Assembly: GCA_040290255.1 (NCBI GenBank)
Contig: PSMU01000001.1
Coordinates: 64,001 to 128,000 of the forward strand
Direction: 5' to 3'
DNA from: Nitrososphaerota archaeon
Lineage (GTDB): Archaea > Thermoproteota > Nitrososphaeria > PSMU01
Length of the DNA stretch: 64,000 nucleotides
Shown: piece by piece, positions 2,300 to 60,212 of the stretch
Numbering within the stretch: the first letter of the stretch is position 1
How the letters are laid out: each line of letters opens with the position of its first letter
Translations under genes and position numbers: made by a program
The notes under the pieces: generated by a model
What the model saw: only the letters and a program-made list of their open reading frames with translations
Told to the model about the DNA's origin: nothing
The model's database searches: none

Positions 2300-2675
2300 C
2301 CGAATCGTGAGGTATAGGGGTGACATCCTCGATCCTGCCTATCTTAAAGCCCATGCGCGCCAAGGCTCTTATGGCGGCCTGCGCGCCCGGGCCCGGTATT
2401 CGAGGCTTAACGCCCCCCGGCGCCCTCACCTTTATGTGGAGGCCGACGATGCCCCTGGCCATCGCGAGCTCGCCGGCGGCAGTGGCTGCCTTCATTGCCG
2501 CGTAAGGCGAGGCTTCATTCCTGCCTCCCTTCACATGCCTTCCGCCAGAGCTTATCGCTATCGTCTCGGCGCCCGAGAGATCGGTGATGTGAACGATCGT
2601 ATTGCTGTATGAGCTGTAAATGTGCGCTACGCCCCACTTTTCTAACTTCGCCTCCTTTGTGGCCTCTTGGCTCAA
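2262..2675 (-). CDS. rps11: 30S ribosomal protein uS11
   Basis: [13 protein letters not shown]...[10 protein letters not shown]...GGRRGRRV. Confidence 0.97.
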
Positions 2676-2735
2676 GGCCCGGAGCCGGGCCTAAAGGCTT
2701 TTAAGGTTTAAGGCCCTCATCGAGCGGAATCAGCT

Positions 2736-3506
2736 GTGAGTGAGAAAGTAATCATGCTAGAAAAGCCCGTACTGCATGAGCCCGTGCTGGTGGTGGGTCT
2801 TCCTGGATCCGGACTCGTGGGCAAGCTAGCCGTGGACCACCTGATAAGCCTCTTTGGCGGGAAGCTCTTTGCTGAGATATACTCCTACCGCTTCCCTCCC
2901 TATCTTGTAATAAAACAGGACGGGTCCTCGAGGCTGCTTAGAAACGAGCTATATTACTTGCATGTCAACGATATAAACCAAGATCTCATCGTCCTTACAG
3001 GCGACGCGCAGCCCTCCGATCCCGTAGGCCAGTATGCGCTGAGCGACAGGGCCCTAGATATAGCGGAGAGCTATGATGCGAAGCTAGTCGTGAGCCTTGC
3101 AGCGTACATAACGTACAGCCTCTCCAGCCCACCCATCAGCGTTTACGGGGTCACAACGCATAGTGAGCTCGTGCCCAAGCTACAGCAGATAGGCGTTAAG
3201 GTGATGGATGAAGGGAACATAAGCGGCATGAACGGCCTAGTGTTAGGTCTAGCTAAGCTTAGGAATATGAAGGGCGTATGCTTCCTCGGGGAGACCTCGG
3301 GCTATGTGGTCGACCCTATGGCCGCGGGCGCCACCCTAGAAGCGCTGGGCAGGTTCTTGGGGTTCACGATCGACGTGAAGTCCCTGCAGGAGAAGCAGAA
3401 GGAAGTTAGCGAATTCGTCAAGTCATTGCGTGAGTTCCAGCGCAGGGTCGAGGAAGAAAGGGCCAAAGCGGGAGAGCAGGCAAAGGACCTGGGCTACATA
3501 AGCTAG
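2736..3506 (+). CDS. Proteasome assembly chaperone PAC2 family protein
   Basis: GLPGSGLVGKLAVDHL, LTGDAQP, CFLGETSGY.VDP motifs. Confidence 0.85.
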   Translation: MSEKVIMLEKPVLHEPVLVVGLPGSGLVGKLAVDHLISLFGGKLFAEIYSYRFPPYLVIKQDGSSRLLRNELYYLHVNDINQDLIVLTGDAQPSDPVGQYALSDRALDIAESYDAKLVVSLAAYITYSLSSPPISVYGVTTHSELVPKLQQIGVKVMDEGNISGMNGLVLGLAKLRNMKGVCFLGETSGYVVDPMAAGATLEALGRFLGFTIDVKSLQEKQKEVSEFVKSLREFQRRVEEERAKAGEQAKDLGYIS

Positions 3507-5827: not shown

Positions 5828-7294
5828 CTATCCCTTTATGACGCCCAGCGGCACCAATCTCACGACCTTGGTGGCGATCTTCAGCGCATGGCTCGTTTCG
5901 ACGACCTCGTCGACATCCTTATACGCCTGGGGCACCTCTTCTGCCGCTCCCTTCCAGCTGGGCGTTTCTATGTAGACCCCCTTTTCTTGCATTATCTGCT
6001 TTACCTTGTCGCCATATTGCCTGACCGCCGCCGAGCGGCTCATCATGCGCCCGGCGCCATGGGCCGTCGTTCCGAAGCTAAGCTCGTAGCTGTTTGCATG
6101 TCCTAGGAGCACCCAGCTGGCCGTGCCCATGCTGCCGGGGATTAGCACCGGCTGTCCGAGATCCTGATAATCCCTAGGTATGAGTGGCGAGCCGGCGGCG
6201 AAACTCCTCGTTGCCCCCTTTCTATGAACCAGCACCTGTTTTCGCTCCCCATTTACCTTATGTTCCTCGACCTTGGCTATATTATGGGCCACATCGTAGA
6301 CGAGCCTCATGCCCAGGGCCTCAGCGCTATTTTTGAAGACGCGCTCAAAGCTGAGCCGCGTCCAGTGCGTTATGAGCTGGCGGTTCGCCCAGGCGTAATT
6401 GCAGGCCGCATGCATGGCCGCCCTGTAATCCAGGCCTTCCCTACTGTTCACAGGGACACAGACCAGTTCCCTATCGGGCACGCTGATATTGTACCTCCTC
6501 ATTGCCTGCTCGCTGATTCTAAGGTAATCGCTGCAGACTTGGTGGCCAAAGCCCCTGCTGCCGCAATGAATGAGCACGGTGATCTGGCCCACCTCATAGA
6601 TCCCCATTCGCTTAGCGGCTTGCTCATCGAAGATGGCATCCACCCTCTGCACTTCAAGAAAGTGGTTCCCACTGCCCAGGGTCCCGAGCTCGGGCGCCCC
6701 CCTCCTCTTGGCCATTTCGCTCACCTTGGTGGGATCCGCGCCCTTCATCTGACCCTCCTCCTCGGCCCTTCTGTAATCCTCCTCCCAGCCATAGCCGTTG
6801 GCCACGGCCCACTTCGCGCCTTCTACTAGCACGTCATCCAGCTGCGAAGGACTTAGCCTTACCGTATGGTGGACCGCGCCCACGCCCGTGGGCACCTTCG
6901 TGAAGAGCTCATGCACCAGCTCCTTAATCCTGGGCCTGACGTCCTTCTCGTGCAGGTTTGTCGCTATGAGCCGTACGCCGCAGTTGATGTCATAGCCAAC
7001 GGCGCCGCTCGATATGATGCCTCCATCTAAGTCCGTGGCCAAGACGCCCCCCACGGGCATGCCATAGCCTTCATGGGCGTCGGGCAGCAGGACGACGTGC
7101 TTTTGCGCGCCCTGCAGATGGGCTACATTAACCGCCTGGTCGATCGTCCGATCGGTCATCATCTTATCCAAGAGCTTCCTGCTGGCGTAGATCGTGACGG
7201 GTACCCTCATACCGGGCTTGGCGTCCTTAGGTATCTGCCAGACATATTCGCTGATCTGCCGCAGGGGATACCTAAAGCTAACTAGAGCGCTCAT
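5828..7294 (-). CDS. rtcB: RNA-splicing ligase RtcB
   Basis: PDAHEGYG, VGYDINCG, GTLGSGNHFLE, HRKGAT, HGAGR. Confidence 0.97.
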   Translation of the reverse strand: MSALVSFRYPLRQISEYVWQIPKDAKPGMRVPVTIYASRKLLDKMMTDRTIDQAVNVAHLQGAQKHVVLLPDAHEGYGMPVGGVLATDLDGGIISSGAVGYDINCGVRLIATNLHEKDVRPRIKELVHELFTKVPTGVGAVHHTVRLSPSQLDDVLVEGAKWAVANGYGWEEDYRRAEEEGQMKGADPTKVSEMAKRRGAPELGTLGSGNHFLEVQRVDAIFDEQAAKRMGIYEVGQITVLIHCGSRGFGHQVCSDYLRISEQAMRRYNISVPDRELVCVPVNSREGLDYRAAMHAACNYAWANRQLITHWTRLSFERVFKNSAEALGMRLVYDVAHNIAKVEEHKVNGERKQVLVHRKGATRSFAAGSPLIPRDYQDLGQPVLIPGSMGTASWVLLGHANSYELSFGTTAHGAGRMMSRSAAVRQYGDKVKQIMQEKGVYIETPSWKGAAEEVPQAYKDVDEVVETSHALKIATKVVRLVPLGVIKG

Positions 7295-31981: not shown

Positions 31982-32041
31982 CTCGGTATCTTAACCGTTT
32001 CCCTTACCTGTTCGCTACAAAGCCCTCGCGCATGAGATTGG

Positions 32042-32130
32042 TGGGGTCGGTGGGATTTGAACCCACGATCACGGGCGTTCCCGTCGATAGATCCCGAGGC
32101 CCGCAGCTTACCATGCTAGCCCACGACCCC
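32042..32130 (-). tRNA. tRNA-Pro(CGG) with 15-nt intron at 37/38 (32078-32092)
   Basis: Minus strand GGGGTCG acceptor, CGGGC-CTCGGG..C-GCCCG arm. Confidence 0.9.
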
Positions 32131-32180: not shown

Positions 32181-32270
32181 GCCCCGGTAGCTCAGGAGGT
32201 TAGAGCGCGGCACTGGTAATGCCGAGAGGTATGGCCCGGCAAGTCGCGGGTTCGAATCCCGCCCGGGGCT
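32181..32270 (+). tRNA. tRNA-Thr(GGT) with 16-nt non-canonical intron at 45/46 (32227-32242)
   Basis: Uninterrupted anticodon arm CGGCA-CTGGTAA-TGCCG; BHB GCCG-AGA...CGGC-AAG in the variable region. Confidence 0.9.
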
Positions 32271-56397: not shown

Positions 56398-57732
56398 CTA
56401 GAGGCTTAAGCGCTGACCGGACAGCATCTTAATCAGCCTTCCTCTGTTAGATCTCAATAGCTGCCTAGTTCGTTTATAGTATTCCAAGAGTTCCTTGACG
56501 GCCCGCTCATCCCGTCCGGATCCGCTAGCGATCCTCCTAATTCTCCTCCCATCGATTATGTCCGGATTTTCCCGCTCCTGTGGCGTCATAGAGTTTATTA
56601 CGCTTTTCCATACCTTCAGTCTTGACTCTATATCGTCTATGTTTATCTCCCCTCCGCCTATTGGCCCGATGGGAAGCAGCTCAAGAAGCTTCCTAAGCGG
56701 TCCCATCTTTCCCAGTCTCTGAATCTCCCTGAGCAGGTCGTCCAAAGTAAAGCGTCCTGACAGCATTTTCTTCACATACTTCTCCTGATCTTCCTCCTCT
56801 ACCGATGCTTCCTTAACTCTTTGGAGTAGAGCCTCTAGGTCCCCAAGGCCCAGTAACCGAGCTGCGAAGCGTTTAGCGTCGAATACCTCTAAATCATCTA
56901 GCCTGTCTCCGGAACATACGAAGTAGATCTTGGCTCCGATGGCAGCTACAGCCGATAGGGCGCCTCCGCCCTTTGCTGTGCCATCTAGTTTAGTTACCAC
57001 TATGCCGCCAAGGCCAACGGCTTGATTAAATGCGATGGCTTGCGCAGCGCTTTGCTGGCCCATAGCAGCGTCAATAACTAAGAAGGTGAGAGTGGGCTTG
57101 ATCGCTTCGTTAAGTGCTCTGACCTCCATCATTAGGGATCTTTCTTCCTTATGCCTGCCAGCCGTGTCGACTACAACGACATTATAGCCCATATCTCTGA
57201 AATGTTTTGTTCCGGCCTTGGCTATCTCCTCGGCGGAGCTGCCCTCAAGCCAATATACCGGGATGCCAACAGGCGCGACGAGCGACTTTAGCTGTTCGTA
57301 TGCCCCCGGCCTGTATGTATCCGCGCATACTAAGCCAACCTTGTAACCACGTTTTTGGAACCATCGCGCAAGTTTAGCTGCCGTTGTGGTTTTGCCGCTG
57401 CCTTCCAGGCCCACAAGCATTATTATATTGAATTCTCGTGGATCGATGTTTAAATGCGCGGTTCCCTCGCCACCTAGCAGACTCACGAGTTTCTCATAGA
57501 GAAGGCGGATCGCGTGCTCCCTCAGCGAAATGCCTGGAGGGAGCTTCTCCTTTCTCACCTTGTTTTCTATATCGCGAGTTAGACGCGCGACCTGCTCAAC
57601 AGCCACATCTGCTAACAAAAGACTCCGCTGTACATCCTTAGAGAATTCTTCGATTGCCTGCTCGACAGGGGTGGTGCTGCTGAGGAGCCTCTCGATCGCC
57701 CTTGCTAGCCCAGCCCTCAGCTCTGAAAGCAT
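56398..57732 (-). CDS. srp54: Signal recognition particle protein SRP54
   Basis: GLEGSGKTTT, DTAGRH, TKLDG, SMT..ER, RIA.GSG; ATG at 57732 chosen. Confidence 0.96.
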   Translation of the reverse strand: MLSELRAGLARAIERLLSSTTPVEQAIEEFSKDVQRSLLLADVAVEQVARLTRDIENKVRKEKLPPGISLREHAIRLLYEKLVSLLGGEGTAHLNIDPREFNIIMLVGLEGSGKTTTAAKLARWFQKRGYKVGLVCADTYRPGAYEQLKSLVAPVGIPVYWLEGSSAEEIAKAGTKHFRDMGYNVVVVDTAGRHKEERSLMMEVRALNEAIKPTLTFLVIDAAMGQQSAAQAIAFNQAVGLGGIVVTKLDGTAKGGGALSAVAAIGAKIYFVCSGDRLDDLEVFDAKRFAARLLGLGDLEALLQRVKEASVEEEDQEKYVKKMLSGRFTLDDLLREIQRLGKMGPLRKLLELLPIGPIGGGEINIDDIESRLKVWKSVINSMTPQERENPDIIDGRRIRRIASGSGRDERAVKELLEYYKRTRQLLRSNRGRLIKMLSGQRLSL

Positions 57733-57819
57733 TCTCTGGGCTTGAAACTCGCGGCAATTAAAAGCTTTCACTAATGTTTTTATTGCACGCATTGACGCTG
57801 GGCTCGGAGGTGATATGAC

Positions 57820-58234
57820 CTGAGCAAACAGGCCGAACTGGGAGAGGTTAAGGAGGGCAGCTACATGGTAATCGAAGGAGAGCCTTGCAGGATCGTGGAA
57901 GTAGAGAAGAGCAAGCCTGGAAAGTAGCGATATGCTACCCAGGTAGCATGGCTCTGCGAAGGTCAGGGTTGTAGGAATAGGCTTGTTTACCGGCTCGAAG
58001 AGAAGCTATCTAGGACCTGCCGACTCATTAGTAGAAATACCGCTGATCGATAAGCGCATCGCGCAGGTACTCGCGCTCCTGCCTGACAGGGTACAGTTGA
58101 TGGATTTGGAAACTTACGAGGTGTTCGAATCAGATATGCCACAGGAGGAAGGGCTTCGCGGTAAGCTTGAGCAAGGCAGGCAGGTGGAGTATTGGGTGGT
58201 AGGCGGGCGAAGGAAATTAATGAAGCTGCGTTAA
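57820..58234 (+). CDS. eif5a: Translation factor aIF5A; two exons (57820-57922 and 57945-58234) joined after removal of a 22-nt BHB intron
   Basis: Spliced product (M)[54 protein letters not shown]..., 130 aa; probable CTG start after GGAGGTGA. Confidence 0.92.
57923..57944 (+). other. Bulge-helix-bulge intron in aIF5A mRNA (AGTAGCGATATGCTACCCAGGT)
   Basis: Central helix CTGG/CCAG, 3-nt bulges AAA and GTA, inner stem GTAGC/GCTAC; standard cut sites restore the frame. Confidence 0.9.
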
Positions 58235-58275
58235 GGAACAAAATTTAATAAGCTCGAGCCTGCCTGTAGGCATCT

Positions 58276-58443
58276 GTGAGCAGCAGAAGGAAAAGGGAAG
58301 CGCCGCTGCCTGCCTCGGGCGCCGGGCTTCTGCGGTTCTTTGAGGATGAGACGAAAGGGATTAAGATCAGGCCCGAGGCCGTCGCAGCGATGTCGATCAT
58401 ACTGGTAGCGGTCTCGATACTGATTAAAATACTGATACGCTAG
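58276..58443 (+). CDS. secG: Protein translocase subunit Sec61beta/SecG
   Basis: Hand-translated MSSRRKREAPLPASGAGLLRFFEDETKGIKIRPEAV + TM helix (AGL.RF...I.P motif). Confidence 0.9.
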   Translation: MSSRRKREAPLPASGAGLLRFFEDETKGIKIRPEAVAAMSIILVAVSILIKILIR

Positions 58444-58454
58444 GGCCTCGCGTA

Positions 58455-60212
58455 GTGAGCTGGAAGGCCCTTCCACCCAAGAGGCGCTATATAATATCAA
58501 TACCGCCGCTTTGGGCAAACCTGGTTTTGTATGTGGCCCTGCAGTTAGTACTCGCTTTCTCTTCGCCGTCTAAATGGATAGTGCCGTGGAGTGCAGCGAC
58601 GCAGTTAATTGCGTTACTGACAGTACCTCTGCTGTTTGGGTCCGGCACCGTGGTGCCTCACGGGGTAATAAGTAACCGGATGATCTTCTCTTCGAATGTT
58701 GCTAGCGTGATATATATAGTAGAAGTTACGATCATGAGATTCGCCAGGGGTTCGGATATCACCTTGGCAGAGCTCATGGTGCCCCTCTCAATGGGATATG
58801 CCTTTTCATTTATCGTAATCCGCTCCCTCTGTTTTCCCAACGGATATCTAGCCAGCGCGCTTAGCGTCCTTTGCGTGGCAACTCCCTTGGTAGAAGGCCT
58901 AGCGGTTGGAAGCGTGGCTGGCCAGTCACCTGTGCGCGCCTCTCTCCTGTTCATTCCCTCCATTTCCACGGTCTTCACATTAGTGCTCTCGGCCCATGCG
59001 GTCATTCGTAGGGGAAAAGCGGTTCTTAAGGAGGATCCCACGGTGATCCTGCCGGCGCTGCTTGAGGCCTGGAGAGGAAGGAATACGACATCGATCGAGC
59101 GGTGGCTAGAGGGCAAGGCCGAGCGAGCAAGGCTGAGCAATTATCTCCTATACTTTCGGTCTATTGATTCTAACGCGGCACAAGGCATATGGGCTATACT
59201 TGGCGCTCACCCAGGGCCCTTCAACCCGTTAGGCTCATATAATTTGCCGAGCCAAGTATATTCTTATCTTAAGCGTGCTTTGGGTAACGTCCCTACGTGC
59301 GTCTTTCATGGTCCGTCTACACATGAATTCGATTTGGTCTCGGCACGCGAGGTCATGAAATACCTGCAAGGCTTAACGCAAACGCAGCCCGATTATATCT
59401 CATCGGGGATATCTAGGGCAGAACTCCTAGTAAAGGATGCTGAATCAGCTTTTCCCTCACTCCTCTGGCTGGGCAAAGACCTGGTGCTATTTACTGGCCG
59501 AGCCTTAGACCCTTATAGTGATGATGTCGCGCCAGATCTGATCGGCGCCTTGCGCGACGCTTTGCGACTGGGGCATGCTAAGTGTGTGGTAATAGATGTG
59601 CACAATGGCATTACCTCACTAAGTAATGGAGAGGAACGTCTATCCAGCATGGGGAGTGAGTTAAACAACCTAATAAGAACGAATGAGGGCCCGAGGCAGG
59701 AGTCGCTGGTAGCGGGGTTTGCCGAAGTGGCCAAGAACCAGCTCTTGGATGTTATAGAGGTAGGGCCGGCTGGGGTCTGCTTCACCTACTTATCCAATGG
59801 ACAGCAGGCGTTGGGCGTAGTAGTGTTTGACGCGAATAGTATAGTTCCTACTGTGGCTAGATCGCTGACGAAGCTCTGCTCAGAACGCCTTGGTTACCCG
59901 ATATTGCTATGCACCACAGATAATCATATCACGGCTAGTGATGTCACATCACGTCACGGATATCTAAAACTGGCTCAAGTGACCGGAGTCGAGCGACTGG
60001 CTGACATAATTCTGGGCGGCATGTTGACCGCCCAAGCCAAGGCCGGGCGCGTTGTCGTCGATTTGCACGAGATACATACGGAGAGCCTAGTACTGGGTAA
60101 TCTGTTGAACGCCATTTCCGAACTCACGGAATTCGCTTCACGCGTTGTGCCGCGCGGCCTCTTATTGAGCTTAGCCCTACACGTTGTTGCCTTCGCAGGC
60201 AGTTTGCTCTAA
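58455..60212 (+). CDS. DUF2070-family membrane protein
   Basis: N-terminal TM helices; HPGPF..GS.NLP, HG.S.HE.D, DVHN, D.N, TTD.H. Confidence 0.8.
   Translation: MSWKALPPKRRYIISIPPLWANLVLYVALQLVLAFSSPSKWIVPWSAATQLIALLTVPLLFGSGTVVPHGVISNRMIFSSNVASVIYIVEVTIMRFARGSDITLAELMVPLSMGYAFSFIVIRSLCFPNGYLASALSVLCVATPLVEGLAVGSVAGQSPVRASLLFIPSISTVFTLVLSAHAVIRRGKAVLKEDPTVILPALLEAWRGRNTTSIERWLEGKAERARLSNYLLYFRSIDSNAAQGIWAILGAHPGPFNPLGSYNLPSQVYSYLKRALGNVPTCVFHGPSTHEFDLVSAREVMKYLQGLTQTQPDYISSGISRAELLVKDAESAFPSLLWLGKDLVLFTGRALDPYSDDVAPDLIGALRDALRLGHAKCVVIDVHNGITSLSNGEERLSSMGSELNNLIRTNEGPRQESLVAGFAEVAKNQLLDVIEVGPAGVCFTYLSNGQQALGVVVFDANSIVPTVARSLTKLCSERLGYPILLCTTDNHITASDVTSRHGYLKLAQVTGVERLADIILGGMLTAQAKAGRVVVDLHEIHTESLVLGNLLNAISELTEFASRVVPRGLLLSLALHVVAFAGSLL

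Follow-up and report, generated by a model that had tools for sequence, protein, structure and literature searches.

Within the window (the whole 64,000-nt stretch of DNA analysed here) the gene for the translation factor aIF5A lies in two halves that occupy different reading frames (57820-57927 and 57947-58234), with a short insert at the junction between them. The features of this gene are as follows.

57820..57922, plus strand: exon 1, codons 1-34 and the first base (A) of the hypusine-lysine codon, assigned by profile match and frame.
57945..58234, plus strand: exon 2, the last two bases (AG) of that lysine codon, 95 codons and a TAA stop.
57923..57944, plus strand: candidate 22-nt intron, the removal of which restores the frame; unique in the genome and present in contigs of runs X1, X2 and X6/X7.
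57820..57822, plus strand: CTG at the aIF5A start position, with the His codon exactly 35 codons further on.
57806..57814, plus strand: GGAGGTGAT, resembling a Shine-Dalgarno sequence and of putative function, 5 nt upstream of the start position.

The exon 1 frame runs from 57820 for 35 codons and then meets a TAG at 57925-57927, while the exon 2 frame runs from 57947 and ends in KLR and a TAA at 58232-58234. The triplet directly before the exon 2 frame and in frame with it (57944-57946) is also a TAG. Deletion of 57923-57944 generates a 393-nt ORF encoding 130 amino acids plus a stop, and the sequence-only reading that preceded this work, which had described a two-frame aIF5A gene with a 22-nt insert at 57923-57944, was correct in its coordinates, its frames and its 130-residue join. 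The split lysine codon is A|AG and the predicted cuts give P-G-K-H-G, such that the hypusine-loop motif K-x-G-K-H-G-x-A-K is regained on splicing as SKPGK|HGSAK. From established knowledge of eIF5A and aIF5A, we take the lysine at this site to be the residue that carries the hypusine modification. Against the NCBIfam profile NF003076, exon 1 covers profile positions 4-36 and exon 2 positions 37-128 of 129, abutting at 36|37 with neither gap nor overlap. Scored singly rather than as a joined protein, the two pieces reach 43.7 and 110 bits, neither of them above the cut-off of 138, and the sum of 153.7 bits exceeds it; for TIGR00037, exon 2 alone is above the cut-off (89.4 vs 75.45).

There is no in-frame ATG, GTG or TTG from which exon 1 could start. 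The same start position is occupied by ATG in 117, TTG in 35 and GTG in 33 of 185 relatives, and the CTG found here is an unusual start codon that might be taken to indicate decay; it is kept in a 96%-identical contig. An intact aIF5A copy elsewhere in the genome, which the sequence-only reading had itself named as evidence that would count against it, was not found, aIF5A giving a single match in the host assembly (nine contigs, 1.21 Mb, 91% complete). In a collection of 5.8 billion proteins, the gene is present solely as a truncated 83-residue ORF, opened by a TTG at 57983, and a full-length, near-identical aIF5A protein, a possible trace of a spliced transcript, is absent from that collection.

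A gene in this state may simply be dead or mis-assembled, the 22 nt representing either an insertion mutation or an error in the assembly of a metagenome-derived genome. The fragmentation and 91% completeness of the nine-contig assembly, the CTG at the start position and the solely truncated ORF in the protein collection are all in keeping with this, and the aIF5A gene of a Korarchaeum MAG carries a plain 1-nt frameshift, so such errors do occur. However, the insert is present without any indel in contigs of runs X1, X2 and X6/X7, which come from three or four separate studies and have depths of 7.8 to 139, and the concern that the DNA itself might lack the insert is thereby answered by independent assemblies. 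The 96%-identical contig of run X6 is particularly informative. All six of its differences in exon 1 are at synonymous third positions in the exon 1 frame and exon 2 has seven synonymous and three conservative non-synonymous differences in the exon 2 frame, amounting to a synonymous to non-synonymous ratio of 13:3 over both exons, each in its own frame; the sole difference in the intron is at loop position 57932. These substitutions indicate that both exons are under purifying selection, each in the frame assigned to it. Furthermore, aIF5A is single-copy and yet the host genome has kept two genes for deoxyhypusine synthase, which needs aIF5A as its substrate, and 21 other genomes (see below), single-contig and 99%-complete ones among them, have an interruption at the lysine codon. 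We therefore regard a dead or mis-assembled gene as close to refuted.

The sequence around the insert can be laid out as a BHB (bulge-helix-bulge) motif of the following parts.

57915..57916, plus strand: 5' strand (GC) of the outer helix h, pairing with 57946-57947.
57946..57947, plus strand: 3' strand (GC) of the outer helix h, pairing with 57915-57916.
57917..57920, plus strand: exon strand (CTGG) of the central 4-bp helix H, pairing with CCAG at 57939-57942.
57939..57942, plus strand: intron strand (CCAG) of the central helix (H'), pairing with 57917-57920.
57921..57923, plus strand: 5' bulge AAA, with a predicted cut after 57922.
57943..57945, plus strand: 3' bulge GTA, with a predicted cut after 57944.
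57924..57938, plus strand: inner hairpin h', with the stem GTAGC/GCTAC (57924-57928 paired with 57934-57938) and the loop GATAT.

All 11 of the named pairs of h-BHB-h' are present and all are Watson-Crick. Three cut registers (0, +1 and +2) would yield an identical mRNA and register 0 alone fits the BHB cut rule, which also recovers the 37/38 splice site of the host tRNA-Lys(CUU). The strict, all-Watson-Crick 4+5+2 motif occurs 237 times on the two strands of the 1.21-Mb genome, compared with 148 in a mononucleotide shuffle, and 52 times with an intron of at most 40 nt, compared with 35. Given a motif frequency of about 1e-6 per position and length, a BHB fit at one of the three frame-restoring registers is not plausibly a matter of chance.

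The junction had been described as a canonical BHB, a description that stands for the sequence, which offers two 3-nt bulges on opposite strands, a 4-bp helix between them and h and h' on either side, but not for the predicted minimum-energy fold of the host RNA. In that fold C57916:G57943 and G57915:U57944 are paired and the 3' bulge is absorbed, and the outer GC pairs have a base-pair probability of at most 0.008 at 37-80 °C. The BHB-constrained fold of the host is 5.5-9.2 kcal/mol worse than the minimum at 37 °C, varying with the stretch folded, and 4.0-5.7 kcal/mol worse at 70 °C; in one folding series, the gap falls from 9.2 kcal/mol at 37 °C to 4.8 at 80 °C. Three clear tRNA introns of the host genome gave gaps of 4.6-8.6 kcal/mol at 37 °C in the same test. 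Of the 22 aIF5A introns described below, 12 have the BHB-constrained fold as their minimum and 18 have it no more than 1.5 kcal/mol above the minimum; at 5.5 kcal/mol (37 °C), the gap in the host exceeds that in every other gene.

Inserts at the same lysine codon are present in 22 genomes including the host, distributed over six families and at least four orders of the phylum. They are 17-40 nt long and five are multiples of 3, and in every one of the 22 the unspliced frame stops within 1-7 codons and the predicted cuts restore the frame, giving a spliced aIF5A of 130-136 residues where the locus is long enough. Each of nine genomes tested has exactly one frame-restoring register that fits the BHB rule, with four of four pairs in the central helix in seven genomes and three of four in the other two. 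The 22 cases were verified by script, true and chance pattern matches having been sorted by eye from the sequences; being kin, these genomes are not independent and perhaps amount to 4-6 independent lineages. True inserts were found in nine of 401 genomes sampled across the phylum (13 had a pattern match; a reversed-pattern control matched one genome) and in 15 of 401 sampled across the class, these being all ten genomes of family f10, all four of family f72 and the host. None of 34 genomes from the 18 other families of the order that contains f10 and f72 matched. The families f25 (4/4) and f38 (2/2), both from one order comprising 17 genomes, also have inserts, and one 99%-complete, single-contig genome (G397) has the insert together with just one aIF5A match. 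The host is the only genome of its order in the genome set compared. The insert was confined to the host's own locus in a set of 190 loci matching aIF5A (identity no higher than 65%), which comprised the 30 best matches from 60 class relatives together with 80 loci from metagenomes and 80 from genomes; two of the other loci are cut by contig ends and one (L188) has a 1-nt frameshift. The pattern searches covered gaps of up to 42 nt, with long introns (for example, those with an endonuclease ORF) falling outside this range. Loop variants without the proline gave 49 matches in 42 of 401 genomes, approximately as many as the reversed control, and none was aIF5A-like by eye.

Two forms of the insert can be distinguished. 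A phase-1 intron is present in the host and in two families (f10 and f72) of a neighbouring order, whilst a phase-2 intron, one base further on, is present in two other orders. The phase-2 introns have no outer helix directly adjoining, and in f38 the central helix contains a mismatch; these introns fit a relaxed motif only. When the 15 phase-1 sequences were aligned, 99.0% of 192 cells were paired, compared with 14-46% in slid controls; the outer-helix columns (13-14 with 62-63 of alignment A2) were paired in 96.7% of cells and the central helix was invariant and paired in all 15 genes. Three pairs of the inner stem have changed on both sides (15 cells), giving a covariation score that none of 500 shuffles reached, and the four f25 sequences are 96.4% paired with two compensatory pairs. 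Same-codon inserts with compensatory changes in relatives, the search for which had been proposed on the basis of the host sequence, are thus present in 21 further genomes, which came to notice through short open frames in the phylum sample, and the inner stem covaries. In their lengths and early stops the inserts behave as non-coding sequence, and the aIF5A intron is one of a family that several lineages of the phylum have at this one codon.

A recoding signal, too, could have a stem that is conserved and covaries, and the arrangement here, in which a stop directly follows the lysine codon with a stable hairpin just downstream, resembles the phage T4 gene 60 take-off site. The insert would then stay in the mRNA and the ribosome would pass it by programmed frameshifting, by stop read-through or by a hop like that of gene 60. 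A single shift cannot connect the frames, however, since the exon 1 frame is closed by the TAG at 57925-57927 and the exon 2 frame by the TAG at 57944-57946. Read-through of the TAG yields unrelated sequence, and neither the host nor f10 has a matching pair of take-off and landing codons from which translation would resume at CAT. Moreover, over insert lengths of 17-40 nt, the 22 genes conserve the BHB geometry, namely two bulges of 3 nt, a helix of 4 bp and cuts that restore the frame, and this geometry is what the endonuclease, rather than the ribosome, measures. Ribosomal bypass therefore appears very unlikely. Split genes occur in small archaeal genomes, and one might also envisage two separate polypeptides that assemble, namely the 35 N-terminal residues and a C-terminal part translated from an internal start, for which the TTG at 57983 that opens the 83-residue ORF would be the candidate. 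Such a break would, however, sever the hypusine loop at the very lysine that is modified, with no start codon or ribosome-binding site at the exon 2 boundary, and the 12 residues encoded by 57947-57982 would be lost although purifying selection acts on them, the change at 57952 being synonymous. We find this arrangement scarcely credible.

If the insert is an intron, the host would need the means to remove it, and two features relevant to this are found in the same window.

5831..7138, minus strand: RtcB RNA ligase gene, the presumed exon-joining enzyme (contig 69831-71138; Pfam match E 1.7e-170; open frame 495 aa).
32039..32130, minus strand: tRNA gene with a 15-nt BHB intron in its anticodon arm (7-bp outer helix, central helix CTCG/CGGG).

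The presence of this intron-containing tRNA gene shows that the splicing machinery is in use. ARAGORN calls introns in 24 of 43 host tRNAs, a few of which are surely spurious, and the host tRNA introns are mostly 10-20 nt in length. Two genes of the EndA family are present in the host genome, with minus-strand ORFs of 183 aa (locus L031, 1459-2010) and 182 aa (locus L032, 1465-2013); one of the two matches chains of solved two-subunit enzymes (E 7.6e-48), and the other is distant and also matches structural-subunit chains. These matches indicate that the host encodes a two-subunit EndA, a type which, in the accessible text of two sources, has a broad specificity and accepts motifs outside tRNA (PMC5829648, PMC2738675).

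Other introns were sought in the host genome, a genome-wide scan for BHB motifs having been recommended in the sequence-only reading. A loose motif combined with an ORF-bridging test gave no discrimination, with 2683-2750 candidates compared with 2630-3033 at random positions. Among the 237 strict motifs, nine with introns of at most 60 nt bridge open frames, and aIF5A is the one convincing case; a bridge at sufB was rejected as the natural end of the gene, and the remaining bridging motifs were rejected because they read as out-of-frame junk. A search of the host genome for a paralogue of the aIF5A intron, at up to 5 or 7 mismatches, returned one match, which was the intron itself, and cbf5 is uninterrupted in this genome.

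Taken together, these data make it highly probable that 57923-57944 is an archaeal BHB intron within the coding sequence of the single aIF5A gene, to be removed by splicing. The original proposal, that a tRNA-type BHB intron splits the hypusine-lysine codon and is removed from the mRNA, now has strong support from its recurrence, from covariation, from selection on the exons, from the single copy of the gene and from the presence of both EndA and RtcB. With a BHB-like insert in the lysine codon here and in 21 other genomes, we infer that the aIF5A mRNA is very probably cut and rejoined before it is translated. The sequencing runs listed as containing window positions 57300-58600 include none of RNA. 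The gene would be transcribed with the insert included, after which the exon sequence GC-CUGG would pair with the intron CCAG and the exon GC, and the intron would form a 5-bp hairpin. With this pairing, each strand would have one 3-nt bulge and 4 bp would separate the two, allowing the two-subunit EndA to cleave each bulge behind its second base (at 57922/57923 and at 57944/57945). RtcB would then join the exons, rebuilding the A|AG codon of the lysine that is later modified by deoxyhypusine synthase. The 130-residue factor would arise from spliced mRNA only, as unspliced mRNA would stop at the TAG after 35 codons.

It had also been suggested that splicing could act as a switch, in which case the intron would be spliced and would at the same time be a regulatory gate, the level of aIF5A being set by splicing efficiency through EndA/RtcB capacity or temperature-dependent folding. 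The cleavable conformer is predicted to be rare in the host and to become relatively more accessible with heat (the gap narrowing from 9.2 to 4.8 kcal/mol between 37 and 80 °C), the unspliced mRNA would lead to a 35-residue dead end, and the interrupted codon is the single one that a working factor cannot do without. On the other hand, the BHB is the minimum-energy fold in 12 of the 22 genes, which argues for efficient constitutive cutting, and bona fide tRNA introns of the host have similar energy gaps. Sister families also do without the intron (0/34 genomes in 18 families of the f10 and f72 order). We therefore find no support for a switch and rate it less likely than constitutive removal; a gating role is possible, but we would not expect it. 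It is probable that removal is constitutive and that the intron is a retained element, once mobile or neutral, rather than a regulator.

The closest known parallel is the BHB intron of the cbf5 pre-mRNA, which is described for Desulfurococcales and Sulfolobales with a length of 16-44 bp in the accessible text of Yokobori 2009 (PMC2738675). The parallel with cbf5 had been drawn from the outset, and it proves to be closer than was then stated. In both genes a short insert (16-44 bp in cbf5, 17-40 nt in aIF5A) interrupts coding sequence at the codon of a key residue, split after its first base; some introns are multiples of 3 and must still be removed; the hosts have hetero-oligomeric EndA; and the patchy distribution suggests gain and loss. 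The cbf5 intron has reportedly also been treated by Watanabe 2002 and Yoshinari 2006. The two cases differ in that aIF5A encodes a translation factor rather than a pseudouridine synthase, is interrupted in different lineages and has two intron variants, offset by one base, in different orders. In addition, cbf5 splicing has been shown experimentally, whereas that of aIF5A is deduced from sequence. The non-canonical short tRNA introns (hBHBh', cut by (alpha-beta)2 EndA) share the same geometry and cut rule, and the aIF5A intron falls within the size range of the host tRNA introns. Here the substrate would instead be an mRNA, with the same enzymes presumed to act, and as there is no tRNA body to aid recognition, the enzyme must act on the bare motif, as is described for the crenarchaeal heterotetrameric EndA in the accessible text of one source (PMC2738675). 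Another mRNA is a splicing endonuclease substrate, as predicted for aIF5A: that of Haloferax volcanii HVO_1309, which has a BHB intron in its 5' UTR and, according to the accessible text of two reports, is cleaved in vitro with further evidence from knock-down (PMC7714728; PMC10485636). That intron is located in an untranslated leader, interrupts no frame and is a substrate for an enzyme of the homodimeric type, whereas the aIF5A intron splits coding sequence. A search of the literature, with subscription-only papers and supplementary files outside its scope, found no published aIF5A intron. The accessible text of a 2023 review counts "at least two archaeal genes", the 5'-UTR case included, and expects more (PMC10485636).

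The positions of these mini-introns lead us to a speculative suggestion, which has only a small chance of being correct: that introns in archaeal protein genes are non-randomly located, each interrupting the codon for the residue that its protein can least do without. In Cbf5 this residue is the catalytic Asp and in aIF5A it is the hypusine Lys, and the two codons are alike in being split after the first base. Such introns could be descendants of mobile BHB introns of a homing type which, like inteins, target the best-conserved DNA of a gene. Horizontal spread among thermophilic Thermoproteota could be a part of this, and would account for the occurrence, in different orders, of two forms offset by a single base. 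Alternatively, the position itself could have been selected, tying the output of a core translation factor strictly to the capacity for tRNA splicing.

Endonuclease-dependent splicing inside an archaeal coding sequence has been published for one gene, cbf5. If our interpretation is true, aIF5A adds a universal and essential translation factor to the list of archaeal mRNA introns, with its intron in the codon for the factor's defining residue. Conservation extends to whole families (10/10 and 4/4 of the genomes sampled), and some of the genomes that carry the intron are complete and in a single contig; the f10 genomes measure 1.2-1.6 Mb, and of the ten sampled three (G397, G506 and G542) are single contigs. 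Since gene callers emit only an 83-residue fragment, aIF5A looks missing or broken in these lineages, an apparent absence that would distort marker-gene sets and estimates of genome completeness. The phase and key-residue position that cbf5 and aIF5A have in common may, in turn, provide a handle on how archaeal mRNA introns originate and persist.

The gene for aIF5A in the window is read as two pieces in different frames:

57820-57927 (+), aIF5A exon-1 frame by translation, opening at 57820 and closed by a TAG stop at 57925-57927
57947-58234 (+), aIF5A exon-2 frame by translation, reading from 57947 through ...KLR to a TAA stop at 58232-58234

Pfam and NCBIfam assign both pieces to aIF5A, and on the NF003076 profile (129 positions) they abut exactly, with exon 1 covering 4-36 and exon 2 covering 37-128. 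Taking out 57923-57944 gives a 130-aa ORF in which the split codon encodes the hypusine lysine; re-reading the sequence, translating both frames and recomputing the ORF bore out what the sequence-only reading had said of the sequence, the frames and the product. The same mRNA comes from three adjacent cut registers, because AG recurs at both intron borders, and only the first agrees with the bulge-helix-bulge (BHB) cut rule used here, which places cleavage after the second base of each bulge.

All base pairs named in that reading are present and Watson-Crick, in the order outer helix, 4-bp helix, 3-nt bulge, inner hairpin, 4-bp helix strand, 3-nt bulge and outer helix. The same layout and cut rule retrieve the canonical 37/38 intron of tRNA-Lys(CUU) in G000, the genome of the window, as well as the intron in the first of two divergently placed tRNA genes (90-92 nt):

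32039-32130 (-), tRNA gene with a clean 15-nt BHB intron and a 7-bp outer helix, its anticodon unnamed by ARAGORN because of the intron
32181-32270 (+), tRNA gene

Introns appear in 24 of the 43 ARAGORN tRNA calls in G000, mostly of 10-20 nt, although a few are surely spurious. Both strands of the 1.21-Mb genome together contain 237 strict motifs of the quality seen in aIF5A vs 148 in a shuffle, or 52 vs 35 with introns limited to 40 nt or less. At the resulting rate, about 1e-6 per position and length, chance does not plausibly explain why one of the three frame-restoring registers fits. Outside the window, a sufB-like gene has another such motif at its 3' end (G000:C4:273531-273568, -), where excision would bridge two open frames; it is unconvincing, since the natural gene end follows two codons on and the downstream frame looks non-coding.

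The description of the junction as a canonical BHB holds for the sequence pairing but not for the predicted minimum-energy fold of the G000 RNA (-26.8 kcal/mol, z -4.09), in which C57916:G57943 and G57915:U57944 lengthen the central helix and the 3' bulge is absorbed. When a 111-nt context is folded, constraint to the BHB costs 9.2 kcal/mol at 37 °C, falling to 4.8 at 80 °C; with a 69-nt context the cost at 37 °C is 5.5. Three clear tRNA introns of G000 show comparable gaps (4.6-8.6 kcal/mol at 37 °C), so the energy gap does not disqualify the motif, and G000 has the least favourable BHB fold among the aIF5A introns.

Where the sequence-only reading had allowed that the DNA might lack the insert, we found the opposite. 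Contigs assembled from sequencing runs span 57500-58400 with no indel, at depth 139 with 2 differences (X1), 7.8 with 9 (X2) and 14.8 with 37 (X6, 96% identical); these stem from separate studies, although X7 evidently represents the X6 data and the window may itself derive from one of these runs. Relative to the X6 contig, the six exon-1 changes all fall at third positions and are synonymous when read in the exon-1 frame, while in the exon-2 frame 7 of 10 exon-2 changes are synonymous and 3 conservative. The only intron change (57932) falls in the hairpin loop, and the exon-2 change at 57952 replaces a G:C pair in the extended outer helix with G:U. Purifying selection on two exons in two frames, with the insert retained, is as expected for a spliced gene rather than a pseudogene.

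The start position (57820-57822) is CTG, where 185 relatives have ATG (117), TTG (35) or GTG (33). The CTG is preceded, at a distance of 5 nt, by a Shine-Dalgarno-like GGAGGTGAT and overlapped by an out-of-frame mini-ORF, ATG ACC TGA (57815-57823); all three elements (57806-57823) are unchanged in the X6 contig. The neighbouring gene is:

56398-57792 (-), longest ORF of SRP54

Its true start is probably 20 codons in, at MLSELRAG; upstream of this (57733-57792), the X6 differences are unlike codon changes.

Matches to aIF5A were found in 58 of 61 class relatives, all with an open frame of at least 131 aa, and no insert was present in 160 metagenome and genome loci, each at most 65% identical. 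A phylum-wide sample contained four matches with open frames of just 96-108 aa, each interrupted by an insert at the same lysine codon. We searched phylum and class samples (400 genomes each of larger groups) with a pattern covering gaps of up to 42 nt, judging true and chance matches by eye and confirming the 22 positives by script. Of 13 phylum genomes with a match among 401, nine were true cases and four were rejected as chance or intact genes, and a reversed-pattern control matched in one genome; the class sample gave 15 of 401. Inserts at the same codon, for which the sequence-only reading had proposed a search, occur in 21 genomes beyond G000, and the stems that were aligned show compensatory changes. 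By family, the 22 comprise G000 (f1), f10 (10/10), f72 (4/4), f25 (4/4), f38 (2/2) and f24 (1/6). One order holds f10, f72 and 18 other families, the latter without inserts in 34 genomes; another (17 genomes) holds f25 and f38 alongside f19 (0/8) and f34 (0/3); the G000 and f24 cases each add one more order. No case came from f4 (0/224) or f11 (0/78), both large families, their pattern matches in the class sample (54 and 14 genomes) being chance or intact genes by eye.

Two further loci were set aside. The aIF5A gene of a Korarchaeum MAG (L188:2700-2830) carries a plain 1-nt frameshift just 5' of the PGK codons; it lacks a BHB and is probably not an intron but either a real lesion or an assembly error. 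In L204 (G260:C5:27592-27634, -) the gene is intact and AAGCCTGGCAAAA, 13 nt 5' of the real KPGK codons, imitates an interruption, which is a caution for automated surveys. P0004, a 90-aa ORF of exon 2 only on a 1029-nt ENA contig, is 72% identical to exon 2 of the window and may come from a closer relative that also has the insert.

Across the 22 genes, splicing at the BHB sites would give aIF5A of 130-136 aa with the expected start (ATG in 21, CTG in G000), whereas the unspliced frame stops within 1-7 codons in every case; only five intron lengths are divisible by 3. A phase-1 form (cut A|AR; f1, f72, f10) has introns of 17-40 nt, outer GC/GC and central CTGG/CCAG helices, an inner stem of 3-11 bp, and bulges of AAA, AAT or TAT (5') and GTA, ATA or ACA (3'). 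In the phase-2 form (cut AA|R; f25, f38, f24; 19-36 nt) the central helix sits one base over (CGGA/TCCG, AGGG/CCCG with one mismatch, or GGGT/GCCT), A begins both bulges and the immediate outer helix is absent, a relaxed motif that the accessible text of PMC2738675 describes as frequent in cbf5. Among 15 aligned phase-1 sequences, 99.0% of 192 cells are paired, with both partners changed in three inner-stem pairs (15 cells); the covariation score was reached by 0 of 500 shuffles, and slid controls paired 14-46% of cells. The four f25 sequences add two compensatory pairs. The T of the phase-1 proline codon takes part in the central helix, and this codon is CCT in 15 of 15 genes vs 78 of 151 intron-less genes; as kin are not independent, a preference tied to the intron is only suggestive.

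Taken with the indel-free contigs and the selection on both exons, this recurrence and shared anatomy exclude a pseudogene or assembly artefact for practical purposes. That the insert stays in the mRNA and the ribosome passes it by frameshift, read-through or hop is highly improbable: a single frameshift is unable to link the frames because TAG closes both (in the exon-2 frame at 57944-57946, directly 5' of CAT), read-through leads into unrelated sequence, matching take-off and landing codons are absent around the insert, and what is conserved is endonuclease geometry, neither length nor sequence. The best reading is that the splicing endonuclease EndA and the ligase RtcB would remove the BHB intron constitutively. 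The proposal of the sequence-only reading that splicing also acts as a regulatory switch found no support and seems unlikely, as the cleavable form folds directly in most relatives (in 12 of 22 genes the minimum-energy fold is itself the BHB, and in 18 the BHB falls no more than 1.5 kcal/mol short of the minimum) and sister families are viable without the intron.

G000, the only genome of its order in the comparison set, is assembled in 9 contigs (91% complete) and contains a single aIF5A locus, with no sign of the intact second copy that the sequence-only reading had considered. It has two EndA-family genes. One matches, over its full length, catalytic chains from two-subunit enzymes of solved structure (E 7.6e-48); the second is divergent and matches structural-subunit chains and Sen54 as well. 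Its cbf5 gene is uninterrupted. Other relevant genes are:

5831-7138 (-), RtcB by profile match
G000:C3:156751-157608, outside the window, deoxyhypusine synthase paralogue
G000:C3:270386-271261, outside the window, second deoxyhypusine synthase paralogue, within a 471-aa open frame

Two such paralogues thus sit in a 1.2-Mb genome.

In the accessible text of PMC2738675, cbf5 introns are 16-44 bp, frequently use a relaxed motif and occur in hosts with hetero-oligomeric EndA, and the paper states that confirmation was lacking for any other protein gene. The accessible portions of PMC7714728 (2020) and PMC10485636 (2023) add just one, the 5'-UTR intron of HVO_1309, with the latter review considering further substrates likely. 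Our literature search, with supplements and subscription journals outside its scope, found no aIF5A intron. The exact place of this intron in the hypusine codon parallels the position of the cbf5 intron, and what sets it apart is its host gene, that exact position, and its conservation across whole families.
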